Shown here piece by piece: positions 4,563 through 38,200 of a DNA stretch of 39,572 nt (the stretch's first letter is position 1; every line of letters begins with the position of its first letter). The notes below the pieces were generated by a model. That model saw only the letters and a program-made list of their open reading frames with translations. It had not been told where the DNA came from and ran no database searches. Source of the stretch: Nanobdellati archaeon. Lineage in GTDB: Archaea > B1Sed10-29 > JAGVWA01. The stretch covers positions 1-39,572 of the forward strand of contig JAGVWA010000019.1 of the NCBI GenBank assembly GCA_018304505.1, read 5' to 3'. The translations under genes were made by a program, and so were the position numbers.

Positions 4563-4577
4563 TTTTCATCATCTCCG

Positions 4578-20200: not shown

Positions 20201-23200
20201 GTAATTCGCTGTGCCTGCAAATGACGCGGTAATGGTAGCAGAGCCTGGGGCTTGTGAAACATTGAAACTGCAGCTTGCGAATCCTGCTCCATCAGTTACG
20301 GCGTTGCATGATTGCGTGCCTGCCGTCAGCGTTATTGTTTCGCCAACAACCGCAGGCCCATCGTCTTCCTGCAGCGTTGCCGACAAGAGACATGAATCAC
20401 TAAAGACACAGTTGGCGTCGTTGGCCGTCATTGTAGTGCCTTCCTTGACAACGTTTATTGTCAGTGAATCAGTGTCAGAGGCTTCGAGGTCTGACACGTT
20501 AAGGACTACCGTCTTGCTGCCAGTGCTCGTGTAAGTGTGTGCAACGCCCGTTGATGTTGTTGGCCCGAAGCTTGTGGAGTCGCCGAAGTTCCACGTGTAG
20601 AACAGCGTGTCAAGGTCCGCGTCTGGGCTGTTTGCAGAACTGAAGCCGAGTGAGTCCCCAACTTGCACTGTTACTGCGTCTGATTCTGCCACTGCTACTG
20701 GCGCCGAGTTCAGTATTGTAGTGACTGCTGTTGCTGATGTTCCTTGTGATGGGAATGAGTCGAATGGTGTGGCTGTGCACTGCCAGATCTCGTTCTTCTT
20801 GGTCTCTGCGCTGTTAATCGTGGGTGTTGATTCTGATCTTATGATTTGCGTTCCGTTTGCTAGAGTTTGTTCCCATTCGTATGCGAAGCTTATGGTGTCG
20901 CCAACGTCAAGGTCAGTCGCCGTGGCAACACATGTCAGCGTGTCAGTTGTCCTCGGATCTGCCGGTGTTATTGTCACTGATGTAATAGTTGGCGGTGTAT
21001 TGACGTCAAGCACGTTCACGTTAACATTGCGCGAGGCTTGTTCGTTGCTCGTGTCAGTCACTGCTACTTGTATTGTTTCTGTGCCGATGAATAATGGGTC
21101 GCCCCATACTGTTAATATAGTGCCTGTGATGTTCACGTTGACGTTCGTTGAACCGACTGCGCTGAAGGTCAATGCGTCGTTGTCAACGTCATTCGCAAAT
21201 GGAGCCAAATCAACTGACCTGAAGTTAGTTGTGGTATTGCTTGATTCATTAACATCAATGTCTGGAATGGCCGCCAGGGTTGGTGCGTCGTTGACTGGCG
21301 TTACATTGACTAATACTGACGTTGAGTCTGTGAATTCAGAATCATTGACCGTAAACACTATGGTTCTTATGCCGTTGAAGTCCGCGTCAGGGGTTATTGT
21401 GACTCCATGCGTTGATGCGTTAATGAATACTGACAAGTTGGCAACTGGCGCTGCTGTCCACACCAAAGCCGACAATGGGGTATCTATGTCAGTGACAAAC
21501 CCATCAAGGTCTAAGCCTGTGAACACTGTGTCCTCTGCAAAGGTTATCGGCGGTATTACCTGAGCCTGCGGCGCGTCGTTCGACACCGTGACTGTGACGA
21601 TGATTGTGTCAGTGTCATTCAAGTTCTCAGGGTCCCTGACAACGAATGTTATTGTTTCCTGGCCGTTGAAGTCCTGTGCGGCTGTGAAATTCACCTTGTG
21701 CTGTTGCGCTGCGCTGCCAATGCTTACAAAGATGTTGGTGTTGCCAGAGAAGGTCCAGATTAACTCGGCCTTAGTATTGTCGGCATCTGTTACGAAGTTG
21801 TCAAGCACTAGCGTATCATCGAATGAGTCCTCTGGGAATGACACGTCAGGCAATGCCGGATCAATTACTGGCCCGTCATTTACTGGCGTCACCGTGACGT
21901 TGACGGTTCTAAATACCACAAATTCGCCATCATTGACTGTTACGTTGAATGTGTCTGCGAGGACTCCTTCTGGGTAGAGGAACGAAAGCACGCAGCTTGA
22001 GTAAGGTGATGCACACAGTATTGCTGAACTTATCTGATACACTGAATTGGAAGTGATTGTTAAATCGTCATTATCTGGGTCGCTGACAAACGGGCCTACA
22101 TTCAGGTTGAAGACGACGTCTTCTGTTGCGTTTTGTGACGGTATTGGATCTATCGTTGGCGGGCTGTTGGCGACTCCGATGATGATCGTCATGTTCTCGG
22201 TGTCGTTGCCCCCGTCAGTGTCTATCGCCGTCAGGGTAATTTCGTCTTCGCCTCCACTTACCCCAATTGGCACCGTGATTTTTAGTTGTGTTCCGCTGTT
22301 TGCTGGCAATGAGGTCTCGAAGTCGATTGTCGCGTCAAGCAGCTGTGGCGTCTCTGCTGAATCAGAAGTCACTAAGTTTGCCCTGTACTGGAAGTACCTG
22401 TTGTCGGGCACCACTGCTATCGATTGCGGTGATGTTGAGAATTCGCTGCCAAATGACTCCCCAGAACACACGGCATCATTACAGCTCCTGAACTGCATCG
22501 TCAGGTTTGTGTCAAAGCCGCCGCTCGTGCTTGCCGGGCCTCCAGTAAAGCGGTCTGCTACCTCGGTTCCAGTGAGCGCCCTGTTGTAAACAATAACCTC
22601 ATCCATTAAGCCGTTGTAGTAGTCATGCGTGCCCTTGCCCACTGTCAAAGGTACGGCGTTGTCGAGGTTGAAGCTTGATGCGGTAAATACGTCGCTCGTG
22701 TCAACCAGTGCTCCGTCAATGTACAGTTTCAGTGTGCTGGTGTCTTTCACGCCTACGATGTGGTGCCATGTTCCAGTTGACAATTCAACATCATTAGTCG
22801 CCTCGATTCCCGTTTTGGCTTCATACAAAGCGCCTGCACCATCATTAAGTGCAGCTTGTCGTGTTGATACATACAACTTGCCGTTGTGAACAGTTAGTTT
22901 CGCGGGCCTGATGGCAACAGTGGCGCCTATTGGTGATCCCCGATCGAGCCATGCGCTGTTGGCTTCGTCCCATTCAAGCAGCTTTTTGTTGCTGACAGCT
23001 GCAGCATATAACCTGCCATTGTACACAGCCAAGTCAGCTAGGAGCGTCTCTAAGGGGAATTGCGATGTCCTATTAACCCAAGCGTTGACGCCGTTCCATT
23101 CAAGCAACACGCCTCTGCCCGCGGCATAGAGCTTTCCATTATACACAGCAATTGAGTTTATGGTCTGACCAGCGCCGCCGACAGTGATCTGCGGTGCCCT

Positions 23201-26200
23201 TTCTGTCCATGAGCTGCCTGTCTCGTTCCATTCAAGCAGCTTTCCAGTAGTTACTGTGGCCCCGTAAAGCTTGCCGTTGTATACTGCCAAAGATTCGATT
23301 TGGTCAGTCGTAACGCCTGCTGGCGTTCCTGCCCGCTGTGTCCACACAGAGCCCCCAGTCCATTCGAACAGCCTGGCGTTAGGCCTTGTTGCGCCGAAGA
23401 GTCGCCCGTTAAACGACACCATAGATTCTATTCCCTGCTGAGCGTTGAGATTTGTCGTAACCCGCGGAATCCACGCGTCAACGCCGTTCCATTCAAGCAG
23501 GTGCCCCAAGTTATCAGATCCAGAAGTACCTGCATACAGCTTGTTATTATGCACTGCCATAGAATGCAATTCATTAGCGCCTGTGTAATCCCCTGCTGCC
23601 CTTACCCATGCGCTCCCACTCCATCTAAACAGGCTATTGGCAGCGCCGTTTGTTGCTGTCCCATATAGAGATCCGTTAAAGTCTATTAGTGCTAACATGA
23701 ATGTATCTGAAGCTGAAAACCGATCAGCAACCTTTGTTAGTGTCGTCGACGGCGCATTGTTATCAATGCCGAATTCTATGTTTCGCTTGTTGCTGTGCGA
23801 TGAGCCGTAGTTGTCAAGCACAGTCAAGTGGTATCCTTTCTTTGCAGCTGTGTCGAATTTACTGATGATGTCCCCGATGTTGTCGTCGCCAGCAGCGTCC
23901 GGGTTCACCCATGCTTCCAGTGTGAACGTGCCAGTGCCGAAGTCAAAGTCCGGATCATCGGAGAAGTCAATGTAATCGTCAATGCCGTCGAAGCTCATAG
24001 CGGTGCCGAAACCAAGCTGGGCAGGTGCGCTGTAGGTCGCGCCGTTGTTGACTCCATTATTTGAGTTTCCGGATGAGTCTGTGATAACGCCTGATGCATC
24101 GTCCATGTGCGCGAGCAGAACACCACCGGTAAGGCCTCCACCTGCTGAACTTGGTTCTAGCGCTGTCCACGTTGCTGTGTTCCATGCCGCGGCTGAGCCT
24201 GCGTCTATTACTCGGCTCGTGAATGTACCTGTGGTTTGTCCTGTACTGAGTTGCACTTCACCTGTGGCTGTTGATTCTGTGCTACTGAATGTGCCCTGGT
24301 TGAAATCGCCCTGCGTGGTGTCTGTCGCTGATCCTGGCGTTATTACCTGGCCAGCGTCGAGGAACTCTGCTTCTACTAGGTCCACGTTGGAAACTGTCCA
24401 CAGAACATCTTGAGGCAAGTCTTCTACATCCGTGACGTTCTGCGTCAAGTTGAGCGTTATGTTCTCGCCTTCGCCCAGGAGTATGCTGCCCGGCAAGCCG
24501 ATAATTATTGGGTTGTCGTTCACTGGGGTTACGTTGAAGGTCACGTCGACCTCATCAAATGACGTGCCGTCAGTGACGTTGAACGTCGCTATCCTTGTAC
24601 CGAAGAAATTGGCTTGCGGGGTTACAGTGACTTGGTGCGGCGGCACTGAATTAATTACAATGGTCAGGTTGCCTGGTTGCGTTGACGCCCAAATTAAGCC
24701 TGATGGGGCAGTGTCAACGTCTGTTACAAAATTATCAAGGCTGAGACCAGTGTATACTGTGTCTTCTACAAACGTCTGTAGGGGTATTGCTGAGATTACA
24801 GGGGCATCGTCCACTGATTCTACAATGACATTGAAGCACTGCTGCGCCGATGTTAGGAAACCGTCGTTTACATTGACACACAATTGCGATGAACCTGAGG
24901 CTTCTGCCTGTGCTATTCCAATCTTGAGGCCACCGGTTACTGATTCCTTGCAGTTAGCTGTGCATGATACGCCAAAGACCGCTGAAACAAGAGTCGGGTT
25001 GCTGTTACTTACTAAGGTGTAGAACAGGTCTGTTGAAGCTGTCTCGGCGTCAAACGCAAATTGGCTTAGGAGCAGCGTTACTGGCGTCACTTGATCCTCA
25101 ATGAGATTCTGTGTTGGTATTGTGCCATTGAAGAACGGCGCCGTGTTCGGTATTTCAATTGTAAGTGTTGTGGTTAGGATGTTGTTTGCCTCATCAAGTT
25201 CTTCTACAACATTACCCGAGTCTGCGAATCCGCGGAGGGTGTGGGAGCCATCTAGTTTGCCTGTGGTATCGTACTGCACGGTGTATGCTGTGGAGTCTAT
25301 TGCATTAGTGAATGTTACTGTTCTTTGGTCTATTATTACTGCTGGGGATTCTGTTTGATCTGTTATTGTTACTGTGAATGCTCCTGGGGCTTTGTTGCCG
25401 ATACTTGACACGGTTATTGAGATGTTTGCAAGGTTGCCCCTCTGCACAGGGTTTTGGAGCACCTGTATTGCTGATACTAAGACATCTGGGATTTCTTCGC
25501 ACGCGTCCCCTGCACCTGTGCCATCTTGGAAGCCGTTGCTGTCTGCCTGTGACGGGTTAAAGACATCTGGACAGTTGTCAATTGGGTCTGCTATGCCGTC
25601 GCCATCAGTGTCGTTGAGGGTCCATGAGAGTTCCCAGAAATCCAATGCCGGGGGCAGGTAATCGGTTTCGATGTTCACTGGTATTATCAATTGCGATGTT
25701 GTCGGCGCTGGTTCTGGCACAACCCCTTCGGGTAGGAAGACATTGATGCTGGTTGTAGAGTCAGGGTTTGTGACAGTAACGTAGTTGCTCGTCATAGAAT
25801 CCTTGGCAATAGCCAGTTCTGCTGACCTGCCTGTGTCAGAAACGGCGAATTCTACTTCCAAGCCGCCGCATTCTGCAGAGCCCAGGCCATGGTCTGGCGA
25901 AACGTCGCTGAAAATGAATTCCCCTGTTGCTGTACAGTAGATCCTCTGGCTGCCATACACTATGATTAGTTCTGGGAAGCCGTCAAAGTCAGCATCGATT
26001 TCCCTGTAGCCTTCTTCATCCTGCGCTGCGGGGATTACAAGGCTTACAACATCGACTGCTGTTGGGGCTGACACTGTAACAAAGCCGAAGTTGCCAGTTG
26101 AATCCATGGTGAACTCTATGGCTGAAGACTCACCTATGGGGGATAATGAAAAGTACTCAATTGGCACATTTGCACAGTTAAAGGCCCCTGAAATTTGGGA

Positions 26201-29200
26201 AATGCCGTTGTTGCTGTCAAGGAACTCCTGCCCGGGGTAGAGGCACTGGATTTCCGATTCATTAATTACTCCGGGGAACTCAGTAGATGCTACTGAGGTA
26301 AACAACCTCATGTCAGAGATGCCGTCATTGTCTAGGTCAATGAATCGCTCAGATGGACCCTCACCAGCTTCAAAGTAGACGGCCAGTTTTCCTGTGGATT
26401 CATCAAATGCAGATGCCTCAAACGTGTCGCCCCACTGGGGCCTTTCAAAGTCATTATCAAATATGGCCAAGTAGTCGGACTGCCACTCCCCCCCATATTC
26501 TTGACTGCTGAACCCACCATCAAGCTCCATGGGGGACTCTGATGGTTTTACACCGAACTTGAATGTCCTCTGTATAATAGGTTTAAGTAGCTGTATCCTC
26601 TGAGTAGTATCATTGGAGCCAACAAATATGGAATCCGAATCCCATGTATCGATTTTTATGACGAGCTCAAAGCTCTTAAAGCTCGTGCTGGTGCCTGTCA
26701 ACAGGCTAGAATACTCAATGCCTACCCCTCCACAACCCCTGAAAGCCTGTATGTTCCCTGTAGTTCCGAAGGTACCTGTATGTGACCAGTCATCGCCAGA
26801 CACTAAGCATGATATTGTAGCTGAAACCCTGCCATTACAAATGCCTCCATCACACAAGCCGTCAAGCTTGTAGTAAAGGTCAGGCTTGGCGTCTTCATTG
26901 AAATCGATAAGCCTCTCAACTACGGTGTTTCTTACACGACTGAAGATCCCAATCAGGTCATTGTTTAAGTCTGTTGATGCAACGTCTGTTGTGCCAGATG
27001 CCACGTCCCAGCTTGAAAGGCTTGCTGGCGGCACGGATGCCTTTATATAATCCCCACCAACATACTCATCAAAGTCTGCCACGCCATCAACATTAATTGG
27101 GCCATAGCTGCTTTCTGTGAAAAAATTAAATATTGCGCTAGGGGCCGGCTGGTTGGCGAAGTAAGCAAGGTCTATCTTGTTCGCAGAAGCAGGGTTTGAA
27201 ACCGTTATGGGTGTTGAAAGTTGCCCTGCGACCAAGCCGATTTCTACGCCCTGAGGCCCGTGACTATCGTATATCGTGAAGCCGTTACACTCGTATAGCA
27301 TAGTCATAGTTGAGAAAATTGAGGAAATTGGCATACCACCGTCCCAATAAACAATGTCGCCATATGTGCCACAGCGCAAGATAGCATCTATGTTACCGAA
27401 CCTGTATATCATAACAATTGTAAAGTCTGGCGTGCCGTCAAGGTTTAAGTCATATCTTCTTTCAAGCCTTGAGTTTAGTGTACTAAGGCCCGCCGACCCG
27501 ACAAAGATACCCACCATGTCCTGAGCGTCATCGCTAATCACGAAATCCTCTCCAGGCCAATTTGCTGGGTCAGATACGATGCTGCCAGCAACGTACTCAT
27601 CTGCCCCACCATATTCTGTTTTATTGCCGTCGATTTTTAACAAGTTGTCCTTGTTTGCAACGAAATGCGTGAATGTGCTCTGCAACATCAGGACATTGTA
27701 ATGCTCTAGCTCCTTGTCATCAGGACTCATGAAGTGCAAAGTCGGATAGGAAACGTCCCTTGTTTCTGACGCCAAAGCCAGGGAATTTGTTGCACCTGCT
27801 GGAATGAGTTTTACCTTGTTTGCAGAGCTGTTCGTACCGAGCACAATGAAACCCGTAGTCGGACCCGCTGTTAAGCTGAGCTCAATGTCAGTGCCAAACT
27901 CTGTTGCATATTCCACGCTGACTTGGCCGCAGATAAAGAAGCCGCTGACGTCGTTCGTCACTGATGTTACTAAGTTAAAAGACCCCCCATCTGTGAACTC
28001 AGATCCTGGGACAAGGCATGAGATCTGCGATCTGAGAATGTGATCTGCAGGCAGGGGTGTTGTGGCATAGCTGCTAAAGTACAAGTCAAAGGTGCCGTCG
28101 TTGTTGAAGTCTACTAATCTTTCTGGTGCTGCGTTGTCCTGTATTGAATATCCTAAGCCGATCTTTGAAAACGCTGGGTCATAAACCACGAAGTCAAGCA
28201 TTTCATTTGAGAACCAGTTGCCCTGATCGCTAAGCGGCAGATTGCCGTCAAGGTAGTCATGATCCGGATATGCGGGGTACTCTGTTGGCTCGTTCATCAC
28301 CCCATCAACTAACAGGCTTGTTGCTGTGTTCGAAACTGCAAATTCAAAGGTCTGTGGAGGCTCGGGTGTTGTCAATGCTAGCGGTTGGAATGACCCTTCG
28401 GGAATCAGCCCTATTCTCCTTGTTGATGTTGGCGTTGTCAGGACCACGTATCCAGTTGCCCCGCTTTTCTTCAAGCCCAGCTCTACGTCTTTCACGGCAG
28501 AGGTAGCGTATGTTACTGTAACGCCTTTGCATTCGAAGGAACCCGAAATGTCCACACCTGCAAGCGTTAAGGCAGTAAAGAGCTCCCCAGGCGCCAGGCA
28601 TTGAATTGTCGTCACTGGGTTTTGAGTGTCAATGTTATTAGTAATCCATCGTGCATCCGGCTCTTGATCATTGTCAAGGTCTATTCGCCTCTCATATACT
28701 ACTGTGCCTTCTGTTATTGACGCAAGCCTGATTTCATTGCTCAGCGCGTTGTAGGCCGCCATTGATGCTGAATCATTTCCCTGCCAGTCTGGCCACTCTC
28801 CAAAGGGCAGCGTTGACACAACGTAGTCCCTTTCCGGGAATGGCCCATATTCGGTTTCCGGGTCTATTTCCCCATCAATTGATGAATCCCCAGCACCAGC
28901 GAAAATGGTGTTGAGTATGTGAGCGAGGTAATTTTGTGTTGCGACAGGCGTTAACAGCCTGACAGCGTATGCAGATGCCTCGCTGGCCACGGTAACGTAA
29001 CCGCTTTTGATGAACGTACTATTTAGGCCAACTTCAATTATAGCCCCTGTTTTAGCGACATCCACTGTGGTGCCGGCACACGTGTTGATTCCGCTTGGCA
29101 GCTCGACTGCTCCTAGGGGCTGCGTTGCGCCTGGTGACATGAGCCTGATTTGTTGGCCATTCCAGTTGGTGGCGGTCTGCGTCATGGTTCCCCCTGGCAA

Positions 29201-32200
29201 CGCGGAAGTAGACAAGTTAAATTCTCCCCTGCCACCACTCAGCCGATAGTGCAACGGCACGCTGGCGCCGCCAGATGTCACACATACTGCATCCGCACCA
29301 ATCAATGGCATGTTACCTAGCGTGACAGAGAAACTGCCGGGGCACTCAAATACCACCTTAAGATCACTACCACGTGGCGTAAGGTGTAAGTCATAGGTGC
29401 CGTCATTGTCAAAATCAAAACGCCTGGTTTCAGTAGGCCCGTTACTAAACGCTGTAACATCTGCGTAAACCGCGATGTAGCCTGCAGGGTCGAATGCGGC
29501 AAAGTCCTGCAGCCTGGCGTCTGTTGCGAACGGCAGCAGGGTTTTCGTGTCATTGATGCCTGCCCCCGTGTATTCAGACGTGTCAACTGCGTCAACTGTT
29601 ATTGAAGCACTCGCCAAGTCGTATGTTATAAGTGATACTGATGCGTCGCCTGCTTTGCAGTACGCTGCCGATGCCCCGGAGGTATCGTTTGAGAACAATG
29701 CAAGGTCTTCAATGCCATCGCCATCAAGGTCAATGCGCCGTTGAATCTCGTCCCCTGTTCCTGCCTCTAGTAGTATGCCAATTTTTCCAGACACTGAATC
29801 ATAGCTCGCCCTATCGTCAACACTCTGAGAGGCCCCCCAGTTTTCAATGTCATCATCTGGGATTGTAAGCTCAACGTACGATGCAGCCCCAGGGTCGTAC
29901 TCTGCGCCAGCCGTTTCGTCACCGTCAATGACAAGCTCGCCCTCAACGTCAGTTAATTGGAAATCAAGAACGCCGTCGAGCTCATAAAACAGGATCAATT
30001 GTTCTGTTGTGTTGTCATATACAGCCGTGTCGTTGCCCGGCCAGTTTTCCTGATCTGACACGTTCTGGTCTATGGTTGTTGAGTTCTCTGTGCCGTTGCC
30101 GTCAAGCACCACTGACTCCTGCGTCGCTGTGACAACAACTTGCTCTCCTATGAGGCTAATGTTGATTGACTTTGGCGAGTCAGGGTTCGATACCCGAACT
30201 GCATCGCCTATTGAGAAGCCGAGTGCCTTGAATTCAATAGCCCCACCATCCGTTATATAATTTATGGTGTGACCAGCACACAGTTCCCCATTTGCAAAGC
30301 TCGGGTTGTCTGCGCATGTGATGCTTGCCGATGAGGGTACGGGCAATCCAGTTTGTAGATCTACTTTAAACAGAGAGTCTTGTGAAGTCATTAATAATTG
30401 GCCTACTGGTAGCAATACCTCTTTAAATGCGACTTCAATGCTTGAACTACCAATAGCATATCTTATCGGCACGCCTCGGCATGTGTCTGAAACTGCCCCT
30501 GCTGTGGGGGCAAACGCTACAAATTCTCCTACACAATCAATCTCACTGCTGCTGCCTGCAAACGAGCCTAGTTTCAAATCTGGGACATTGTCTGCGTCAA
30601 GGTCAAAGTTGCGGAAAGCTTGTCCTGTTAGCGCTTTCAGATAAACAGTTATTTCGCCCATGTTGCTTGAATAAGCTGCGTAGTCTGTTGCATCACCCCA
30701 AAATCCAGCTGTTATGTCTGCTGCAGGCAATGTGCTTGTCGACCCTGGCGCTAATTCTGCAACATACTCTGCGTCTGAAGCATCAATCGCTACAGAAGTT
30801 AAACTTGGCAAGGCAAAGCCGAACCTGGCCGCAGGGTATTCTGTCTCGCCTGGCACAACTAATGAAACTGATTCATCAGAAATGACGATATTGTTTACTA
30901 CAACAAATCCCCTCCCAGTAACAGCAATCAAATCAGTAGTGTTTATACTTACCTCTACACCATTGTCTGGTGCTACGACTGCTGTTACCTGAACATCTAA
31001 ACAAGGTTCTGTGCCGCTGTTGATAGCCTGGTCCGTGTCCACAATGGTTGTACCTTGACAGTCTACGATCACTTGACCTTGTGAAGCGTCACTGGTTATC
31101 GCTAATACCTCTACTGGTTCATTTTCAATCGGGTCGAAGAATGAAACGAACCTTGTTTCTTCTTCAATTCCTCGTAGGTAAATTACCATTCGATTATTAA
31201 CTGAATCATATGCTGCGTATTCTTTTGCAGTTCCCCATGGGAAAACCAAAATGTCCTCTGCTGTATAATTGTCTTGCGTTGTGTATTCATTTGCTAATCC
31301 GTCGATTGTTAGCGGTGTTCTGTCATTTAGTACTAAGAAGTTTGTGGGGGCAGCTGTTCCGCCGATGACTACCCGGCTCGTTACTGCCAGGTCGGACACA
31401 AGGTCATTGTTTAAGTCGTAGCCCCTTGTTTGCCTAGACCCCGGGTTTACCTCGAGGAAAAAGTTCAAATAGTTACTAAAGCCAGTGAAGAGCGCGAACT
31501 CTCCATCTTCTATGTTGCCCCAGCTCTCAAAGATGGCCTCGTTGTCCTGTGGAAAGGCCGATTGATACGCATTAAGCTCCGCGGTATATTCTGACGCGTT
31601 GGCATCAAGCAATACCTCATCATCCACTGCCGCGAGTAGGAAGGGGAAGGTTTGCTCTACATCTTCTAATACTTGGGCGGCAGGCAAGCCCATTCTGGCC
31701 ACGACAGAGTGCACCTTTGGCGACACAGAAGGGTTGTTACTATCAAAATTGATCTTGTACTGGAAGTACCTATTCTCTGTCAAGTTCATAAAACCGGGGC
31801 TGCCTGTTAGTTCCTGGGTATAACCTTCGCCGCTACACTGTGGGTCATCACAAGTCCTTACGCCAATGGTAACAACCTTGTTCCTGTCCAGCAGGCCGTC
31901 ATTGAAGCCCTGGAGGCCAGAGCTGTATCGCTCAAGAACTTCTGCTGATGAAAGGGCTCGCGGATGGAGCTTAATCTCGTCCAAAATTCCATCAAAGTAA
32001 TCAACAAATTGACCAGTTGATCCGAGTGCAGTGAGCTGGTTGAGATCGAGACTACCTTGTAAAAATGAATCTGACGTATCAACCAAGACGCCATCGACAT
32101 ACAATTTAAGCTGGGTTGCTTCCCTGACGCCAACAATATGCGCCATACCCGTATTAGTGTATGGGATGTCTTGCATTGCAACGGAACCGGAACCAACTGA

Positions 32201-34774
32201 ATGTAAGGTTCCCCCCGACCCTGTTGCAAGATATATCATTCCATCATAAGCAACTACTGCTGTTGGTGCTGAAGGGAGTTGCCCCCCGATAGGATTAATT
32301 TGAATTCCATCTGTATAAATAAATAGGGGGCTAGTCGTAAAAACTGCGGGTAATGCATACAAATCTCCATTAAAGACCATTAGATTATTAAGTGGTTGAA
32401 GTGAAGTGAATTCAGTTATCCAGGAACTAGAACCATCCCATCGCACAATGCTGGTTAGACCAAGACTATTATCTCTTGCTATTCCATATATCCTGCCTTT
32501 GAAAACAATTATTGATGTTAAGCCAGAAGAACCAACCTGCGACGCCTTTGCAAGCCACTGATTATTTACTTCATCAAATTCAAGCAGCTGGCCAGAACTA
32601 CCCGTAGAAGCATAAAGTTTTCCATTGTATAAAATCATTGAGGTGATTACTTCAGTTCCTGGGAAGCTTGGCAGCGTGTCTGCACGCTTCACCCACTGCG
32701 CGCCAGTTTCATCCCACTCTAATAGTTTGCCTCCGGGTAACGTTCCTCCATAGAGCTTTCCCTTAAACGAAACTAAAGACGTGATTTGCGACTGTGATTC
32801 AAGGCTGCCTGCCCGTTGTACCCACCCAACACCAGCAACGAATTCAAGCAAGTGGCCCACTGATGGGCTTGTGCCTGCGAACAGCCTGCCGTTATGAACA
32901 GCCATGGACCCGATAAGTTGGTCATTCAGGTATGCCGATGCTGCTTCTGTCCAAGCCGTGTCACCCTTGGTCCATTTAAGTAGTCGGCCCCCGTCAGAGG
33001 CTGCCCCTGCATAAATCGACCCATTGAATACAACCATTCTATTTATAGACACAGTATCAAATTTGCTAGCGACTTCTACATGATTTATGAAATAACCATC
33101 ATTGACGCCAAATTGTAATCTCTGTCCACCTTCAGATGCTGAGCCTATAAATCCCAAAGTCACGCCTTCATGCGCAGCAGTGGTCGAGTATGAAGTTAGT
33201 ATATCTCCAGCAGCATCATCATTTGGTAGATTTGGTTTTGCCCATACTTCCAAAGAGAAGGGCTCTGTGCCCATTGCCCAATCGCGCCCGTCACCGAAAT
33301 TCACGACATCATCAATACCATCAAGCAGTACGCCAAAGCCCCCGGCTTTACCAAAAACGCCGTTAGTGCTGCCAGTGGTGACACCATCATTAACGCGCTC
33401 TGAAGAATCGATAACCTGTTCCGTGCCGATGTCCTCGAAGTGCGCCGCCAGCAAGTGATCCCCAGAAACCTGCCAGTGCAGCGAGTTCCAGATTGCAGGT
33501 TCAATTGCGTCATGCACCCTCGATTCATACGTGCCTGTTGTTTGCCCAGAAACTAGCTGCAATTCACCTGTTGGCGTTAGTTCTGTATTTACAAATGTTC
33601 CGTTGAAATCACCAGCTTTCGTGTCAATGCTAAATGATGGGCCAACCAATGTTATGGCATTACTTGATTCCGGGTTATAAACATCTATTGTTCTTGACGT
33701 AAAATTCGAGAGCGGGAAAACAACTTCAAGTGTTGGGTTGGTTGATGGGGTTGCCCCGACAGCATCAATGATGTCTGCTTCACAATTGGCTACAATAAAA
33801 GGCCTCACAGCAGGATTTAGGACAAACCCCCCAGCTCCACCTATGACAATTACTACTGACCCACAAACGATTTCATAATTAGTAGTGCCAGCTGTCCTTA
33901 CAACGCTTAATTTAATTGAGGCATTGCCATCACCATTAAAATCAAGATATCTTACTGTGGCAGGCGCATTATTTATACCTGATAATGAGATGACAAAGTG
34001 CGGTGCAGTCCTTACTGTACCAAGTTCATGTATCCCCGCCCGATCCGTTCCCCTCCAGTTTGCTGGATCAGAAACGCCACTTTGAGTTACATAGTTTGCA
34101 AATGAGCTGAAATCAGCTGCATTTCCATCTTGTTCATCAACAACGAGTTCCCTCGTCAAGGTGTGATTGAAAAGGTTAGTGGTCTGGAACTCGATTTCTT
34201 TATATTCTGATGCTGACGCGAATTCAATGGTTGCGTAGTCGAAGTCCCTGTCTGGGGACGCGAAAACAACATCAGGGTTCGTAAGTGTGGCCCTCAACCT
34301 AACCTGGGTCACGCCGAGGTTGTTTAATTCTGCAACGCTCTGGCCGTTTCGCACGTCAGGAATGAGGACAGTTGTTCCAGTTGAGTCCATGATGTCTACT
34401 ACTACCGTGCCATTGTGAGGAACCCTAGTAATCTTGATTTTGTCCCAGAAGTTGTTTGCTGGAATGTCAATGAAGTCAGACATCACAACGCCCGCAGTAA
34501 CGCCTTGTTGCAGTGTTATGTGCGTCGGCAAATTCGGGTCTGTAACTATCGTGATGTTGCTCGATAAAGCAGAGTCGACCCTTGTTGGGTCTGCAAAGTT
34601 GTCACAGAAGCTGTTTGGATTGGGACAGTCCGGCAGTGGCCCGGTGATGAAACCAGTAAGCGCGAACAACGCCCCTGGGTTTGTCACTGTGAAGTAGCCC
34701 AATACAACAAGTAAGGCGATTACAAGCGTCATTGCTGTTAATTGCGTCTGGGTCTGTCCTTTTGTGCCGATCAT
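14213..34774 (-). CDS. 6853-aa giant surface adhesin with class III signal peptide and nested domains
   Basis: Uninterrupted 20.5-kb ORF starting TKG|QT plus a hydrophobic helix. Contains about 15 DxNxDG modules, 2 LamG domains each with a 7-blade propeller, TSP3 (DTDGDGIADPIDNCP), CARDB, multiple cadherin-like repeats (VTPVND.P), PKD (YTWNFGD) and Ig domains. Ends in a helical region, a Cys motif and poly-Asp. Confidence 0.92.
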   Translation of the reverse strand: MIGTKGQTQTQLTAMTLVIALLVVLGYFTVTNPGALFALTGFITGPLPDCPNPNSFCDNFADPTRVDSALSSNITIVTDPNLPTHITLQQGVTAGVVMSDFIDIPANNFWDKIKITRVPHNGTVVVDIMDSTGTTVLIPDVRNGQSVAELNNLGVTQVRLRATLTNPDVVFASPDRDFDYATIEFASASEYKEIEFQTTNLFNHTLTRELVVDEQDGNAADFSSFANYVTQSGVSDPANWRGTDRAGIHELGTVRTAPHFVISLSGINNAPATVRYLDFNGDGNASIKLSVVRTAGTTNYEIVCGSVVIVIGGAGGFVLNPAVRPFIVANCEADIIDAVGATPSTNPTLEVVFPLSNFTSRTIDVYNPESSNAITLVGPSFSIDTKAGDFNGTFVNTELTPTGELQLVSGQTTGTYESRVHDAIEPAIWNSLHWQVSGDHLLAAHFEDIGTEQVIDSSERVNDGVTTGSTNGVFGKAGGFGVLLDGIDDVVNFGDGRDWAMGTEPFSLEVWAKPNLPNDDAAGDILTSYSTTAAHEGVTLGFIGSASEGGQRLQFGVNDGYFINHVEVASKFDTVSINRMVVFNGSIYAGAASDGGRLLKWTKGDTAWTEAASAYLNDQLIGSMAVHNGRLFAGTSPSVGHLLEFVAGVGWVQRAGSLESQSQITSLVSFKGKLYGGTLPGGKLLEWDETGAQWVKRADTLPSFPGTEVITSMILYNGKLYASTGSSGQLLEFDEVNNQWLAKASQVGSSGLTSIIVFKGRIYGIARDNSLGLTSIVRWDGSSSWITEFTSLQPLNNLMVFNGDLYALPAVFTTSPLFIYTDGIQINPIGGQLPSAPTAVVAYDGMIYLATGSGGTLHSVGSGSVAMQDIPYTNTGMAHIVGVREATQLKLYVDGVLVDTSDSFLQGSLDLNQLTALGSTGQFVDYFDGILDEIKLHPRALSSAEVLERYSSGLQGFNDGLLDRNKVVTIGVRTCDDPQCSGEGYTQELTGSPGFMNLTENRYFQYKINFDSNNPSVSPKVHSVVARMGLPAAQVLEDVEQTFPFLLAAVDDEVLLDANASEYTAELNAYQSAFPQDNEAIFESWGNIEDGEFALFTGFSNYLNFFLEVNPGSRQTRGYDLNNDLVSDLAVTSRVVIGGTAAPTNFLVLNDRTPLTIDGLANEYTTQDNYTAEDILVFPWGTAKEYAAYDSVNNRMVIYLRGIEEETRFVSFFDPIENEPVEVLAITSDASQGQVIVDCQGTTIVDTDQAINSGTEPCLDVQVTAVVAPDNGVEVSINTTDLIAVTGRGFVVVNNIVISDESVSLVVPGETEYPAARFGFALPSLTSVAIDASDAEYVAELAPGSTSTLPAADITAGFWGDATDYAAYSSNMGEITVYLKALTGQAFRNFDLDADNVPDLKLGSFAGSSSEIDCVGEFVAFAPTAGAVSDTCRGVPIRYAIGSSSIEVAFKEVLLPVGQLLMTSQDSLFKVDLQTGLPVPSSASITCADNPSFANGELCAGHTINYITDGGAIEFKALGFSIGDAVRVSNPDSPKSINISLIGEQVVVTATQESVVLDGNGTENSTTIDQNVSDQENWPGNDTAVYDNTTEQLILFYELDGVLDFQLTDVEGELVIDGDETAGAEYDPGAASYVELTIPDDDIENWGASQSVDDRASYDSVSGKIGILLEAGTGDEIQRRIDLDGDGIEDLALFSNDTSGASAAYCKAGDASVSLITYDLASASITVDAVDTSEYTGAGINDTKTLLPFATDARLQDFAAFDPAGYIAVYADVTAFSNGPTETRRFDFDNDGTYDLHLTPRGSDLKVVFECPGSFSVTLGNMPLIGADAVCVTSGGASVPLHYRLSGGRGEFNLSTSALPGGTMTQTATNWNGQQIRLMSPGATQPLGAVELPSGINTCAGTTVDVAKTGAIIEVGLNSTFIKSGYVTVASEASAYAVRLLTPVATQNYLAHILNTIFAGAGDSSIDGEIDPETEYGPFPERDYVVSTLPFGEWPDWQGNDSASMAAYNALSNEIRLASITEGTVVYERRIDLDNDQEPDARWITNNIDTQNPVTTIQCLAPGELFTALTLAGVDISGSFECKGVTVTYATSAVKDVELGLKKSGATGYVVLTTPTSTRRIGLIPEGSFQPLALTTPEPPQTFEFAVSNTATSLLVDGVMNEPTEYPAYPDHDYLDGNLPLSDQGNWFSNEMLDFVVYDPAFSKIGLGYSIQDNAAPERLVDFNNDGTFDLYFSSYATTPLPADHILRSQISCLVPGSEFTDGGSFNLVTSVTNDVSGFFICGQVSVEYATEFGTDIELSLTAGPTTGFIVLGTNSSANKVKLIPAGATNSLALASETRDVSYPTLHFMSPDDKELEHYNVLMLQSTFTHFVANKDNLLKIDGNKTEYGGADEYVAGSIVSDPANWPGEDFVISDDAQDMVGIFVGSAGLSTLNSRLERRYDLNLDGTPDFTIVMIYRFGNIDAILRCGTYGDIVYWDGGMPISSIFSTMTMLYECNGFTIYDSHGPQGVEIGLVAGQLSTPITVSNPASANKIDLAYFANQPAPSAIFNFFTESSYGPINVDGVADFDEYVGGDYIKASVPPASLSSWDVASGTTDVASTDLNNDLIGIFSRVRNTVVERLIDFNEDAKPDLYYKLDGLCDGGICNGRVSATISCLVSGDDWSHTGTFGTTGNIQAFRGCGGVGIEYSSLLTGTSTSFKSFELVIKIDTWDSDSIFVGSNDTTQRIQLLKPIIQRTFKFGVKPSESPMELDGGFSSQEYGGEWQSDYLAIFDNDFERPQWGDTFEASAFDESTGKLAVYFEAGEGPSERFIDLDNDGISDMRLFTSVASTEFPGVINESEIQCLYPGQEFLDSNNGISQISGAFNCANVPIEYFSLSPIGESSAIEFTMDSTGNFGFVTVSAPTAVDVVSLVIPAAQDEEGYREIDADFDGFPELIIVYGSQRIYCTATGEFIFSDVSPDHGLGSAECGGLEVEFAVSDTGRSAELAIAKDSMTSNYVTVTNPDSTTSINVFLPEGVVPEPAPTTSQLIIPVNIETDYLPPALDFWELSWTLNDTDGDGIADPIDNCPDVFNPSQADSNGFQDGTGAGDACEEIPDVLVSAIQVLQNPVQRGNLANISITVSSIGNKAPGAFTVTITDQTESPAVIIDQRTVTFTNAIDSTAYTVQYDTTGKLDGSHTLRGFADSGNVVEELDEANNILTTTLTIEIPNTAPFFNGTIPTQNLIEDQVTPVTLLLSQFAFDAETASTDLFYTLVSNSNPTLVSAVFGVSCTANCKESVTGGLKIGIAQAEASGSSQLCVNVNDGFLTSAQQCFNVIVESVDDAPVISAIPLQTFVEDTVYTGLSLDNFVTDVDTAPSGLIWASTQPGNLTIVINSVPPHQVTVTPQANFFGTRIATFNVTDGTSFDEVDVTFNVTPVNDNPIIIGLPGSILLGEGENITLNLTQNVTDVEDLPQDVLWTVSNVDLVEAEFLDAGQVITPGSATDTTQGDFNQGTFSSTESTATGEVQLSTGQTTGTFTSRVIDAGSAAAWNTATWTALEPSSAGGGLTGGVLLAHMDDASGVITDSSGNSNNGVNNGATYSAPAQLGFGTAMSFDGIDDYIDFSDDPDFDFGTGTFTLEAWVNPDAAGDDNIGDIISKFDTAAKKGYHLTVLDNYGSSHSNKRNIEFGIDNNAPSTTLTKVADRFSASDTFMLALIDFNGSLYGTATNGAANSLFRWSGSAWVRAAGDYTGANELHSMAVHNNKLYAGTSGSDNLGHLLEWNGVDAWIPRVTTNLNAQQGIESMVSFNGRLFGATRPNARLFEWTGGSVWTQRAGTPAGVTTDQIESLAVYNGKLYGATVTTGKLLEWNETGSSWTERAPQITVGGAGQTINSIAVYNGKLYAAGRGVLLEWNGVNAWVNRTSQFPLETLLADLAVYNGRLYAAAVSNKKLLEWDEANSAWLDRGSPIGATVAIRPAKLTVHNGKLYVSTRQAALNDGAGALYEAKTGIEATNDVELSTGTWHHIVGVKDTSTLKLYIDGALVDTSDVFTASSFNLDNAVPLTVGKGTHDYYNGLMDEVIVYNRALTGTEVADRFTGGPASTSGGFDTNLTMQFRSCNDAVCSGESFGSEFSTSPQSIAVVPDNRYFQYRANLVTSDSAETPQLLDATIDFETSLPANSGTQLKITVPIGVSGGEDEITLTAIDTDGGNDTENMTIIIGVANSPPTIDPIPSQNATEDVVFNLNVGPFVSDPDNDDLTITSNSVYQISSAILCASPYSSCVLSFLYPEGVLADTFNVTVNDGEFVVFRTVNVTVTPVNDGPVIDPALPDVSFPEDSFDDTLVLDNFVTDADNTKAELIWTFSGNTNIFVSIGSAAQQHKVNFTAAQDFNGQETITFVVRDPENLNDTDTIIVTVTVSNDAPQAQVIPPITFAEDTVFTGLDLDGFVTDIDTPLSALVWTAAPVANLSVFINASTHGVTITPDADFNGIRTIVFTVNDSEFTDSTSVLVNVTPVNDAPTLAAIPDIDVNESSNTTTNFRSVDLAPFANDVDNDALTFSAVGSTNVNVNITGTILTVWGDPLFIGTETIQVAVTDTSNEQASRNVNVNVLDVNTPPTITSVTITPADPRTTDTLTCVATATDLDVGDTISFAYEWEQTLANGTQIIRSESTPTINSAETKKNEIWQCTATPFDSFPSQGTSATAVTTILNSAPVAVAESDAVTVQVGDSLGFSSANSPDADLDTLFYTWNFGDSTSFGPTTSTGVAHTYTSTGSKTVVLNVSDLEASDTDSLTINVVKEGTTMTANDANCVFSDSCLLSATLQEDDGPAVVGETITLTAGTQSCNAVTDGAGFASCSFNVSQAPGSATITASFAGTANYTSSSDTATLTIAKETLFLSLDTVLARFSDPTPAVSGSAEENDGPTPTQAAQARVFVDADGDTLQGVGETCDANIVSGLFTCQPAASIQLAQGTYSITVNLLSNTFYTAAQATGTLNVDPEQTIITADSKTCTETQTCALSGNIQSDDAEFRSVSVSQGVDTNYNSIFEALETCSTTSSASTGDFACTPAAPLAGRVPGTVSNAIFANFSGDAFWQQAMAFADLTVADDDTQGPTLSVPAVVNESASNLNILVSVSFTDEFTGNSDISEAKLYFAFNNPGVSDTVNDGELDIISGTATLLSSFIGDAKEGDTIYWIVKVTDNDNDHTGDKASTFSSVVSTLITDDDTTAPEVTLTSPVNNQVLGPDDIPFTVTAVATDTGSGINKVEFFQFNGVPVSIGIDTVPGPGNVYSVSWNPSFTLGANEFMLREYGGNGRGLTTGYVSSDDYTVLDPTNYQGTNFATRQASPNYNYVNFFEPGSISDQVRLIDLNGDNQDDLRITIDFVTQDFAIECKNLSGGSYELVAGFQNGTWPTRTDSSCNTVGLTGVKGATGNGMELFVNRAKVLLLFGNDFIGIKSQAATTYIKLKSIIVPPTGGVFNLRAVATDNDNSPSTAQDEVFNITVDLQPPVIQSIDADDTQIYTSTTITANVTDNFAVGTATATVFAPNGALAGVIPLTPTFTAGSTQATFVGTFSNTSQLGAYLVSVTTVDQTGQSATDTATFQAQDTLLPVIQGVDFPGDDPTAILSILNLNPLNKTVNIYEPLDEAAFVSDNYQLTSVYGEFITPSVTAFTQQCEDNVGPVAFQAAELNFTCPFTQTAELGTYTARVFATDDEVPVEGFDLRIGSVTTFTGTQGALTLAQDDYTIIDPASYTGINLAGTIGLPSKNYVIYFQPNTVTDAVRLVDINTDGSDDFRLTVDPATNNFAFECRPFSGGAYSLIANFKNSTYPNATNSNCNGIGFTGIKAASGSGVQIFFNRNKIFSLFDKDYIGIKSLAATEFITLKQIPLTFKLEAGKTVSAYNGGDSPFNSSYDYSVLNPAFYATSRDFAARATVTNPNYLLFFEPSSTSDTQRIVDLNGDGEDDFRVTVDPATNNFAFECRPFSGGAYSLVANFKNSTFPNVTNSNCNGIGFTGVKAANTTSTPAGVQFFFSKAHIFTLFGNEFINIKNPASPRYIKLTQEASFQGSVPTYVSVSETFTVADQTAPTIVGILLAENYTVNDTITLLAGVSDNYQLTQVETTVLHPNGTLFTGLCQQSVAPVAFSSVNLAYECNITDEIGSTADTGTYQITITATDGTFTTDAIVETEVTVFGEDTTAPEILAAQAESPVEVYNTSRINATAFDNIALNNTGLAFITNSNGTIVEIVTLAEFASRTVPGGEEADFEGDFTETLFPDLYNAELIILDAAGNEARVNVTVLVRDSIAPVVTVTPVPGTVEVFTASSIQLDVTDNYDIDAITASYVAPSGGAPVQLCSFTDNTMPDVNLRTQDTFSAACALNTTELGIYAITVTANDSEGNTIIEGATVTAQDTIAPEIVDLALQAETSTLLNGTFTVVFGSQLNLTGAFTDNFDIDTAVVTTTTSLGTTQQIVNYPASPEFSFSGLLTLLDTATLGPHTVTVEVFDSSGNSADSVSEGFAIEYTVAFEVQLEIVSITVAPTVAPLHPPLTDNSTYAAGESFNIIVQVRNTGAFNTSTATLSTDTVSVLLSFANTSVPLPTIAPGATVTGTLSATVPVTASVDDFENVIINLIANAAEIEPPVEPAENTTTVTIVGTNGLVAEKLALVALANSINLNNVKPLEHSDFKVMGNKIEQVEKAGLKMEKEFLESQVQLPMGSIDSLRAAGHQTEKDCQSAILAIHKAEEREARAIKKGKTQLAGYLQQLQDIMRQVKRIDMIIMSTLIDQDVSNSKKACHVEDDDDTAFEDPSNNVRFLKDFHEIIRQLKKQAKIDAPFCSVDADCDDGLSYNVDVCKSNGFCKYKKAPPAGGDDDDDDDDDD
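14216..14245 (-). repeat. (GAY)n trinucleotide run encoding the poly-Asp C-terminus
   Basis: About ten consecutive GAC/GAT codons before the stop. Confidence 0.9.
16791..17470. repeat. Recent intragenic tandem duplication, 513-bp offset
   Basis: Identical blocks 16806-16837 = 17319-17350 (32 bp) and 16895-16933 = 17408-17446 (39 bp). Confidence 0.9.
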
Positions 34775-34816
34775 GGTTTTGCCCCATTGTTATTATTCAT
34801 GGTAAATCAACATGCC

Positions 34817-34824: not shown

Positions 34825-34829
34825 GTTAT

Positions 34830-35207
34830 TTATGGTAAGTTTATCACGGTCTCGATTAAGTTGCTTACGCCGATTGTGGCGTTGTGTGTTAATGACTCGC
34901 GGGTGATGAATGCCTCGATGTCGTTGTTCACGTTCACCTTCAACACCACCCCTCTTTCAAGTGCCAGCCTGCCGCATGATTCCGCGATGCCGAACGCCAT
35001 TGTCCGGTTTGCTTGTGACAGGCAGATTGCCTGCGCTGACAGCACGCTGGTGGTCAGCTGCATGTCGCCGAAGCCGTCATTGTCAAGGTCAATGTACCTT
35101 GTCTGCTCGCTGGTTGTGCCCCTTCCAAGGAATATCACTGTCTCGCTCGTAGAGAATCGCTGTACAGCCCTGTTAATTCCAGGATATGGACCGAAGTCTG
35201 CGGGCAA
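34830..35207 (-). pseudogene. Out-of-frame ninth module of the 1334-aa gene (frameshifted C-terminal fragment)
   Basis: Encodes the same module (YPGINRA..RYIDLDNDGFGDM..C..C..IEAFI) without its N-terminal part; overlaps the upstream ORF end in the +1 frame; no signal peptide. Confidence 0.75.
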
Positions 35208-38200
35208 ACGCCGGCTTGCTGAGCAGGAATTGGGTTCCGCCTTGTTTTCTTGGCCCGCTTGGTGAGCTTGCTAGTAGCGATTTCGAGACCCGCACAGGCT
35301 CAATAGAGTCCTGTATCGATATTTCGAATGTGAAGAACGATGGCGATGCAGTAAAGGCGTTTACGGGTTTTCCTTTGCACGTGACGTTTGCCCCATTGGG
35401 CAGCGGCGTCCTTATTATCGTGAGGCCGTCGTCTGTGAGGCAGTTCATGCCGTTGTTTACTGAAAGCTCGATGTCTGCCAATGCGTCGTTGTCAATGTCA
35501 ATGAAGCGCGCTGTCTGTGATGACGACGAATAGTCCCAGAACAGGAAGACCTTGTCCACTAGGAGTGAGAATGCGGCCAGGTTTGTGCCGTCGAACGCCG
35601 ACTCTGTGTCGTTTACTGTATAAGTGTCAAACGCCGGGCTGTATTCAATGCCCTGCCCGTCAGCAACTAGGTTTGCGCGCACCTTTAAGTCGAATGGTAT
35701 ATCAACTCCCGCGAACTCCTGTGGAACGAGGTTTATGAAACCCGTAGCCAGCCCGCCCTTGACAGAGACGAAGTTGCTGCCTATTACTTGGAGGTCGCTG
35801 AAGAAGATTTCAATGGTAGCTTCTGGGTTGGCGGGTGTAACTACGGTTGAAACCCTGACGCCATTGCATGATGCTCCAGTGTAAGGCGCGCCGTTGCAGA
35901 GGAAGTTTATCGAGGAACCTGTTGAAACCATTTCGAAATCAATTGCGCCATTTTGGTCAAGGTCTATTGAACGCTTGTCATCCCCAAAGCCAATGGCGGC
36001 ACTCCAGAAAATGAAGATGTTGTTTGTTGTCGAGTCCTGCGCTGCGAAGTTGGTTCCAAAGTAGTTAGCTGGGTCCTTGTCCGTGTAAACGTCATCTGGT
36101 GCTATGAATTGCGCTTGGCCTCCAAACAAGCTCAATGAGGGGGCCTTTCTTAGAACGTGCGTAAACTCAGGAACAGGGCCTGCTGGTGCTGTTGATAGCT
36201 TAACCTTGTTTGCCGATGCCGGGTTACTCATTATGACAAAGTCCTGCGGCAACTGGCTTTTTGCAATGCCTACTTCCAAGGCACCCGGCGGCGTCGCGGT
36301 AGTTATTGCTACGCCGGCGCACGTTCCTGAGCCGAATATCTGCGTGCTTGTCGGTAAGCACGTTACCGTACTCATTACGGGATCAACACGCAACTCAAGC
36401 TCCGGCGTGCCGTCGTTGTTTAAATCGATGCGCCGTATCACGATTGAAGTGGGCGCCAGGGCGATTCCAATGGTGTCGCCTGTTGAGTAGAATGCTGCGA
36501 AGTCAGTGCCGAACCACTTTAGCGGATCTGGGATTATGGCCCCAACAGTGTAATCATCACTGGGCTCATATTCAATAAGTGAGCCATCAATTGTCACTAC
36601 CTTCGTTGCCAAGTTGAAGTCAAAGGTGGCTCCTGGCTCTGGAGCTGACAAGAGGTTGATTATGTTTGAAGATGAAGGTGTCGTGATAGCAACGTAATTT
36701 GAATTGAAAACGCCAGTAAGCTGGTCTATGGACAGGGCCAGTTCTACTCTGTTGCCGCTGACTGAGTAGCCAAAGCTCATGCCGCCACAACCCGCGAAGC
36801 TTGTTACTTGACTAGAGCCTGTGAATATGATCATTGATTCCGGTATGCAGAAAACCTCAGCATCACTGAAGGGGATAGATTTGATCCTTAGTTCAGGCGT
36901 GCCATCGTGATTGAAATCGATGTTCCGCTCTGAAGTACTTGGCCCTGACTCCAGATACACCTGTATCGCGTCTTCCAATGAGTTCAGCGCTGCAAGGTCT
37001 GTACCATCCCATGACGGCGCGTCCGGGGCTACTGATGCGTAATCATCAGAACTCAGGGCGTATCCATTTGTCGTGGCGTCTAGCGCAACTGGCCTTGTAA
37101 AGAGGCTGAAGTTGAACTCGTTTCCAGTTGGTGCCGGCCCGCCTGTGGGTTCGATCAGGTGCACTGCGTTCTGTGACACAGCTGCATCTGCGGATACCGT
37201 GATGCCGTTTGGCAGGAAGGCTGTGTCAAACGCAACTTCAACTGCGCCACCTGATTTTGCAAACATTATGCTAGTACCTGAACAGCTGTCAGGCGATGAG
37301 AACATGATTCTACCCGAGTCAGGTTCACACTTTAACGTGATATCAAATGGAATGGCTGCGCCGTCTCCTGTTAATTCAATAGAAACTACAACTGTATCTG
37401 GCGTACCACCGTAATTTATTTTCCTGAACCTGTCGTTCGGGTTGCCGCTGTAGTACAGCGCTATATCATCATTAGGGAAGTCAAATGCCGCATAGTCCTG
37501 CGACAGCCACGCGGCGGCGTCTGGTAATACCAATGTGTAATCATCTGATGCCGTATATTCTGTCGTGGCCGCATCGAGCGTTACAACCCTCGCGGCAAGC
37601 GTGTGGTTTAGCACTACTTGGCCAGGGGCTGCTCCGGGCCTGATAAGCTTTACCTTGTTGCTCGATGAGGGATTTGAAACCAAGATGAAGCTTCCTGGCA
37701 GCGTTACTGAAGTTAATTTCATTTCAATGATGTTGCTGTTCTGCTGGAAAAATACCTGGACGCCGGCGCATGAGTCTCCAGACATGCTGAAGCCAGGCGA
37801 TGCTGGGCAGCTAACTGAAGAGGAGCCTATAGAATCTGAAAAGAGTGATAAGTCATCTGCGTTATCGTTGTTGAAATCGACGCCCCTCATTTTAGCCCCA
37901 TCAACGGACTGGAAGAACATGAATACGTCTCCAGATGTGGCGTCTGACGCTGCGAACTCCTCGTGTCCAGGTGTAACTCCCGCCCAATCCATTGCGTCTG
38001 GCACAACTGTATAATACCGGTCGCCCGCATCATAGTCCCCTGGTGTGGCATCAAGGGATAGTGATTTTTCCACAAGCGTGAAATCGAATGTCGCCCCTGG
38101 GGCCCCAGCGCCACTTGCCTGCAATGTCAAAATCTCCGCAGATGATGGTGTCGAAAGTTTTACAAAGTCGAATGGCAACGTTGCCCTGTCAAGGAACACC

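Follow-up and report, generated by a model that had tools for sequence, protein, structure and literature searches.

Insertion of one domain into another is common and well documented, but the inserts tend to be small and shorter than their hosts: in a recent survey inserted domains have a median length of 115 residues and their hosts one of 199; among the cases given there is Si3 of the cyanobacterial RNA polymerase beta-prime subunit, which spans 640-690 residues and reaches up to six levels of nesting (PMC13114784). Very long archaeal proteins are also on record: the SPEARE-type giants of nanohaloarchaea (DPANN) comprise 8,880-9,409 amino acids (PMC10266531). Here we analyse a window of 39,572 nucleotides, contig JAGVWA010000019.1 of a Nanobdellati archaeon (assembly GCA_018304505.1), in which a single open reading frame (ORF) on the minus strand, window positions 14213-34774, encodes a surface protein of 6,853 residues. 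How is the beta-sandwich domain at its N-terminus closed? Could its last strand lie almost 3,000 residues further along the same chain?

The host genome measures 0.92 Mb, is 92.8% complete and is archaeal, judged by the sequences of neighbouring genes (eRF1/aRF1 domains, TYW3). The giant resembles SPEARE-type proteins in being an enormous secreted or anchored protein of a genome of about 1 Mb, in its wealth of Ig-like and LamG-type adhesion domains, and in that it presumably mediates contact with a host or substrate (PMC10266531). Unlike them, it has no VirB4/TraG-like ATPase domain by Pfam (PMC10266531); no ATPase family was among the Pfam matches in scans of residues 1-3500 and 3401-6853. 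It further differs in having no sequence homologue in the databases searched, in its source, groundwater and soil instead of brine, and in its nesting, which the portion of PMC10266531 at hand does not describe for SPEARE-type proteins.

With Si3 and the other nested insertions covered by PMC13114784, the giant shares the A1-B-A2 order, host pieces that complement each other, nests within nests and tandem domains within a host loop. It would differ from them, judging by profile matches, in that a host of about 100 residues would carry some 2,870 residues and at least 13 domains, themselves nested, and be closed by a strand of 11 residues (PMC13114784). The proposed closure would push a known kind of architecture to a new extreme without founding another. 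In chaperone-usher pili, a beta-sandwich that is short of one strand obtains it from a distant segment, provided by another subunit. The donor strand of the giant, in contrast, would most simply come from the same chain, and the two systems share neither a sequence relation nor a significant fold relation.

The N-terminal beta-sandwich and its terminal strand

We propose, from profile matches, that the N-terminal sandwich is a discontinuous domain closed in cis by the strand PPALDFWELSW at residues 3041-3051; our confidence in this falls just short of even. To our mind it is the single most economical explanation, offered tentatively and not as a demonstrated one. At the level of sequence profiles the two pieces are complementary, the neighbourhood of the first holds no acceptable strand, and nesting is pervasive. 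An insertion origin and, above all, the present-day pairing of the two pieces are what we infer.

The domain belongs to a family that could be defined outside the giant protein. A HMMER scan with residues 60-195 against 1.84 billion representative sequences returned just four marginal matches, three of which end in LRAxL, a loop of about 4-8 residues and TP-x-L-x-x-W-x-V-x-[YWV]. A profile built from the marginal matches led to 28 proteins, and in 28 of 29 rescanned database proteins the domain is a single contiguous stretch of about 95 residues. Seven segments of the same phylum were added, two from paralogues in the window's own genome and five from four other genomes; the domain is also contiguous in four relatives of the phylum. 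The 35 members used, bacterial and archaeal, all come from outside the giant. Their core motifs are G-x-[iv]-S, W-x-x-[vl]-x-f, t-l-t-V-D-V-L and LRAxL, and they end in a terminal strand, [ST]P-x-L-x-x-W-x-[VI]-x-[YW], in which W is conserved in 34, L in 33 and P in 31 of the 35. The first-pass annotation of the window had expected a P-x-L-x-x-W strand after RLRAxL, and this expectation holds across the family. No Pfam model covers the family, and a sequence search of the PDB found no solved relative.

Two paralogues with sandwich-family and LamG domains are encoded on contig C7 of the same genome (10333-12501 and 12838-14253). The one of 723 residues carries a contiguous sandwich copy at its C-terminus, with the terminal strand FPTLDYWAVSL; in the one of 472 residues the sandwich is, read by eye, apparently split by LamG.

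Copy 1, the N-terminal sandwich of the giant, follows the family as far as strand 6. With the giant kept out of the family hidden Markov model (HMM), residues 87-168 align to model positions 12-91 of 119 (E 1.9e-17), and the alignment ends there; the profile of 35 sequences gives E 6.2e-16. GVVMSDFIDIP (residues 95-105), FWDKIKI (109-115), TVVVDIMD (123-130) and VRLRATLTNPD (158-168, window 34271-34303), the motifs quoted at first pass, were all found in the one minus-strand frame where they had been placed. A strand-6 matrix has its top match in the local QVRLRATLTN (15.65 bits). With hmmalign, residues 169-200 stay unaligned and model positions 92-119 are deleted. A terminal-strand matrix of 11 columns, in versions of 28 and 35 sequences, was scanned across all 6,853 residues; the local windows all score below zero, the best reaching -2.77 for starts 169-182 and -2.12 for starts 166-190. 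The terminal strand is indeed missing beside strand 6, as had been read from the letters alone.

Might copy 1 nevertheless be closed locally, by a divergent strand within residues 173-185 (SPDRDFDYATIEF), the distal strand being vestigial and now only a linker? We regard this as the main rival reading, a serious one though somewhat less probable than closure in cis. An [ST]P stands at nearly the family distance from strand 6 and is followed by an alternating hydrophobic pattern, and ATIEF matches ATIDF of the confirmed closing strand of sandwich copy 3. Both the family HMM and the matrix reject the segment, however, and AlphaFold2 leaves it unbuilt. In a model of residues 60-200 made with 14 family rows, residues 175-184 have a pLDDT (predicted local distance difference test) below 50 and form no strand; DFDYATIEF (177-185, window 34220-34246), which the first-pass annotation had considered as a strand that might complete the fold on its own, was not built although the alignment put the family strand there. 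The mean pLDDT of this model is 62, with block means of 68-93 over model residues 31-110, and strand 3 (FWDKIKITRV) is also unformed. An equally divergent archaeal member, from genome G021, served as control with the same 14 rows: it reached a mean pLDDT of 74.9, with strand 3 at E50-60 and the terminal strand at E120-130 (pLDDT about 85). Since the control obtains its terminal strand from the same rows, the failure in the giant reflects its local sequence and not the method. An alignment of residues 46-400 with family and module rows put modules wrongly onto the sandwich and was left out of the modelling.

The distal strand behaves differently in the same matrices. A motif search for PPALDFWELSW gave one match, with none expected. 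In the 28-sequence matrix position 3041 ranks top of the whole protein with 13.53 bits (next 7.29), a score reached by 4% of 300 shuffles; in the 35-sequence matrix it again ranks top, with 15.35 bits (next 8.09), reached by 1% of 500 shuffles. That the matrix picks out real strands is seen from the runner-up, TPQLLDATIDF at 4142, which truly closes sandwich copy 3. For seven true archaeal strands, leave-one-out scoring gives 10.9-20.3 bits; with 15.35 bits inside this range, the distal strand is typical of working strands in the phylum. The family HMM aligns residues 3041-3053 to model positions 95-107, and PPALDFWELSW resembles the paralogue strand FPTLDYWAVSL. The two pieces thus come in complementary order and without overlap, model 12-91 at residues 87-168 and model 95-107 at 3041-3053, with residues 169-3040 (2,872) between strand 6 and the distal strand. 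Copy 1 resembles the family up to and including strand 6, and the distal strand resembles the family's last strand, in a family that is otherwise mostly contiguous. The first-pass annotation had set this orphan strand, at about 25622-25655, between the closure of the last nested module and a TSP3 repeat, and the place is confirmed: the closing piece of the last split module (2921-3013) lies just before it, and the DTDGDGIADPIDNCP calcium-repeat motif and CARDB follow directly. A comparable order is seen in the relative from genome G021, where CARDB-like sequence, read by eye, comes straight after an intact family domain; this speaks for the distal strand as the end of such a domain. No other orphan N-part of the sandwich family to which the strand could belong was found in residues 169-3040.

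That the distal match arose by chance, or represents the first strands of a truncated module, copy 1 being stable without a seventh strand, strikes us as improbable. The motif is just 11 residues long, 1-4% of shuffled proteins reach its score, and QLIIPVNIETDYLPPALDF is, by eye, like the opening hairpin of the modules (tF.F.v......l.vDG). Yet the match falls exactly at the domain boundary after the array and is the sole family piece that copy 1 lacks; the module HMMs pick up nothing at 3027-3051 even when thresholds are relaxed, whereas residues 3041-3053 do align to the family HMM; and in the control the terminal strand is long and confident. A second family copy starting from residues 182-215 and owning the distal hairpin was rejected, as it scores just -2.6 bits and overlaps the conserved opening hairpin of module 1.

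Three further comparisons were made. A two-chain prediction of residues 60-200 (with alignment) and 3018-3060 gave a score of 0.01 and was counted neither way. A metagenome scan with residues 3000-3100 yielded 159 relatives, of which the best 80 were kept; none of these 80 loci carries the family domain on the matched strand, and the alignments inspected were driven by the calcium repeat alone. Pairwise tests of the local and distal pieces against sandwich copies 2 and 3 were not significant (p 0.09-0.78).

Nested modules between the two pieces

Residues 200-3020 consist mainly of one module type, whose model runs to about 172 positions. A hairpin opens the module and G-x-v-v-x-n-p-x-S-x-x-x-i-x-L closes it; a W, an R-x-iDlnnDG-x-pDl loop and two Cys are its other marks. 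A module HMM was built from 14 complete modules, seven of the giant, six of the neighbouring gene and one of contig C8, where a 380-residue ORF (47805-48944) holds two module copies. In residues 200-2920 this model finds eight complete modules, three N-pieces and three C-pieces. All three N-pieces pair with the three C-pieces, properly nested and complementary in model positions (1-85 with 117-165, 3-101 with 118-171, 10-60 with 65-165), and every rebuilt split module has its two Cys, as complete modules do. The nested context reported at first pass is therefore real.

Nest A encloses two full modules and nest C one. Nest B takes up an insertion of 1,322 residues (1599-2920), made of nest C and five full modules (seven modules, one of them split). 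It is split at a single loop (model position 60 to 65), and its junctions are tight, with no linker: LILFYE meets LDGVLDFQ on one side and VIPAAQDE meets EGYREIDADFDG on the other. This loop is not the one at which nests A and C are split, and the differing split points argue against two independent subdomains. On these profile matches the nested module architecture is well supported. The module has no Pfam match and none among 5.8 billion protein clusters in a profile search; against PDB sequences it gave a weak EF-hand-loop match only (E 0.024). The module family is nearly private to the host genome, with weak matches, among 31 genomes of the phylum, in just 2 others.

Sandwich copies 2 and 3 are nested as well, each split after strand 3 by LamG. 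The LamG matches (PF13385, Laminin_G_3) reach 49.1 and 80.9 bits, above the Pfam gathering score of 27.6, and their best stretches, profile positions 55-150 and 67-151 of 151, are consistent with a split LamG. Between the LamG halves lie propeller-like repeats (VFNGxxYAG..G.LLEW), with a weak Pfam match at 592-674. Wherever the family domain is split (copies 2 and 3 and, by eye, the 472-residue paralogue), LamG enters after strand 3, not strand 6. The nest of copy 2 (window 31691-33586, residues 397-1028) and that of copy 3 (residues about 3495-4155) both have three levels. Three more modules apparently sit inside Ig-like hairpins at window 16654-18898 (residues about 5293-6040), judged by HMM and by eye; in one, SWNPSFTLGANEF is followed by a module and then GGVFNLRAVATDNDN.

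By these sequence matches domain-in-domain insertion is common in the giant protein, and the sandwich pair of model positions 12-91 and 95-107, flanking all the rest, would be one more case of its nesting pattern. In full, a sandwich of about 100 residues may be closed in cis 2,872 residues further on, about 300 kDa and at least 13 domains (nesting depth 2-3) forming one loop insertion; this we advance cautiously, at somewhat below even confidence.

Possible readings: closure in cis, closure nearby and strand donation

Fold searches against the PDB with the giant and control models gave no match at E below 0.001, and what either model did match, without significance, were jelly rolls or sandwiches of a generic kind (CBM6, GOLD, PNGase C-terminal domain). 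Donor-strand filaments are known from archaea, copy 1 has the look of a fold short of one strand, and chaperone-usher pilins occur among the non-significant fold matches of its incomplete model (E above 0.1). Does the distal strand, then, complete the sandwich of another molecule, so that the giant proteins, linked head to middle, form chains or a mesh at the cell surface? We consider such donation in trans very improbable: the fold matches are not significant, and closure in cis better fits the nested architecture of the same protein.

If copy 1 were instead closed by its own neighbourhood, the distal strand would be the last strand of a second family domain ahead of the calcium repeat and CARDB, truncated by fusion or deletion. 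A fusion is plausible because the adjacent upstream gene consists of a signal and a module array. QLIIPVNIET, before the distal strand at about the right spacing, is weakly strand-6-like (0.78 bits, top 3.3%), as would be expected of a truncated hairpin, and the G021 relative has an intact family domain with CARDB-like sequence directly after it (read by eye). A neutral remnant of 11 residues is, however, unlikely to keep the score of a working strand unless the event was recent. Local closure and a vestige also require two independent events, whereas one insertion explains both features, and neither the strand-6-like nor the local strand-7-like resemblance is significant alone.

Several observations nevertheless weigh against closure by the distal strand. 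AlphaFold2 had a shallow alignment of 15 rows to work from, and the mean pLDDT of the giant model was no higher than 62. About 30 unassigned residues with strand-like patterns lie on each side of the array (169-199 and 3014-3040), whereas the module nests are tight. The local FDYATIEF is loosely like LLDATIDF of copy 3 and LDYWAVSL of the paralogue (p about 0.09) and stands in the right place. The conserved W is absent from copies 2 and 3, each of which nonetheless has a closing strand of its own; as copy 3 closes without this residue, the lineage is able to close the fold without W. Conservation of the distal strand among orthologues lends no help, no orthologue having been found in genomes, clusters or metagenome contigs. 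Finally, the scale of about 2,870 residues is far beyond known insertions, whose median is 115 residues (PMC13114784).

Base composition points the same way. The GC content at third codon positions (GC3) is 0.55 up to residue 210 or so, close to the genome value of 0.546, and then drops sharply, with a change point at residue 211 (support 207-215, twice the log-likelihood difference 32.8). Module 1 has 0.315 and the stretch from there to residue 1545 has 0.41-0.42; nest B is at 0.51 and residues 3021-3053 at 0.576. The break lies at 211 and not at 168/169, so that the N-side linker shares the composition of copy 1; an ancestral local continuation hence explains the pattern no worse than a clean insertion at 168/169 would, and the equal GC3 counts in favour of local closure. 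For the block of about 211-1545 (window about 30140-34142), low GC3 suggests a separate origin, age or history.

Orthologues were sought widely. For the N-terminal region, 61 related genomes yielded none; the single further match, in genome G011, proved to be an SMC-like protein. Beyond the four marginal matches there was none among the 1.84 billion representatives, and none in 31 genomes of the phylum, among giant-length proteins in 5.8 billion clusters or in metagenome contigs.

Under closure in cis by the distal strand, residues 87-168 would hold the strands through strand 6 and PPALDFWELSW would be the original last strand, the two parted by domains inserted in the loop between strands 6 and 7. 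Duplication, both tandem and nested, would then have enlarged the insert to about 2,870 residues. Once the protein is mature and outside the cell, the chain would return and the distal strand would complete the sheet, probably next to the conserved FWDKIKITRV, and the entire module array would hang off one loop of a domain of about 100 residues.

The gene, its surroundings and the meaning of the proposed closure

DNA near-identical to the window is present in groundwater and soil metagenome runs, of which the two best may themselves be the source of the window sequence; among the runs listed as carrying it there is no RNA run. One independent contig of 15,630 nucleotides covers window 25400-35000 with one base different, and the junctions on both sides of the putative insertion are also covered by contigs of other runs. 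Since independent contigs span the stretch and both junctions, the architecture is not an assembly artefact. At window 28491 a single T>G difference occurs in independent contigs of runs X1 and X2. A joint of 29521 to 33465 in runs X3 and X4, with a shorter side of just 21 letters, was taken as spurious.

The N-termini of the giant (34640-34774) and of the neighbouring gene (39100-39177) both read KGQ[TA]Q followed by a hydrophobic stretch, which we take to resemble archaeal type IV pilin-like (class III) signal peptides. At the C-terminus of the giant (14213-14900), a Lys/Glu-rich, helical-looking stretch and a Cys-rich segment are followed by ten Asp ahead of the stop.

Table 1. Window coordinates of the giant gene, its parts and the adjacent gene.
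Feature	Window	Strand	Residues	Description
Giant ORF	14213..34774	-		N-terminal hydrophobic signal/anchor, beta-sandwiches, module array, LamG/propeller nests; Ig-like, CARDB and PKD domains, coiled-coil-like C-terminal stretch, Cys-rich stretch, poly-Asp tail
Sandwich copy 1	34271..34516	-	87-168	family model 12-91, through strand 6 VRLRATL; AlphaFold2 core pLDDT 68-93
N-side linker, unassigned	34178..34270	-	169-199	holds DFDYATIEF and YKEIEFQTT; HMM-unaligned, GC3 flank-like
Putative insertion	25715..34177	-	200-3020	module 1, sandwich copy 2 (split by LamG and propeller), nest A, nest B
Nest A, opening	31373..31654	-	1041-1134	module model 1-85
Nest A, closing	30155..30325	-	~1484-1540	HMM 117-165 at 1493-1540; first Cys motif SITC just before
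Nest B, opening	29981..30124	-	1551-1598	module model 10-60
Nest C, opening	29642..29968	-	1603-1711	module model 3-101
Nest C, closing	28934..29095	-	1894-1947	module model 118-171
Nest B, closing	25736..26014	-	2921-3013	module model 65-165
C-side linker	25655..25714	-	3021-3040	Pro-rich, then QLIIPVNIETDYL; strand-6-like score 0.78 bits, top 3.3%
Distal strand PPALDFWELSW	25622..25654	-	3041-3051	family model 95-107
Calcium-repeat motif, then CARDB	25172..25621	-	CARDB 3096-3201	DTDGDGIADPIDNCPDVFNPSQAD; CARDB by Pfam, E 1.9e-06
Sandwich copy 3	22310..24268	-	N part 3503-3559, C part 4127-4155	model 8-61 and 80-108; closing TPQLLDATIDF
Neighbouring gene	35173..39177	-		1,334 aa; signal, then tandem module copies, no family sandwich

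What would follow from these findings? Even if the outermost closure fails, it is notable that 1,322 residues part the two halves of a module at a tight loop junction. The sandwich family and the 172-position module with its DxDxDG-like loop, two of the building blocks, have neither a Pfam model nor a solved relative. The nests, LamG in sandwich, propeller in LamG and module in Ig-like domain, indicate that an archaeon with a tiny genome builds an adhesin of 6,853 residues by recursive insertion and not by simple tandem repetition. If closure by the distal strand is true, it would be by far the largest and among the deepest domain-in-domain architectures described, and accepted size limits of discontinuous domains would be off by more than one order of magnitude. 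An extracellular archaeal fold would be completed only after nearly 3,000 further residues had been exported and folded, and the protein would offer a natural test case for a host domain that awaits its distant closing strand during secretion.

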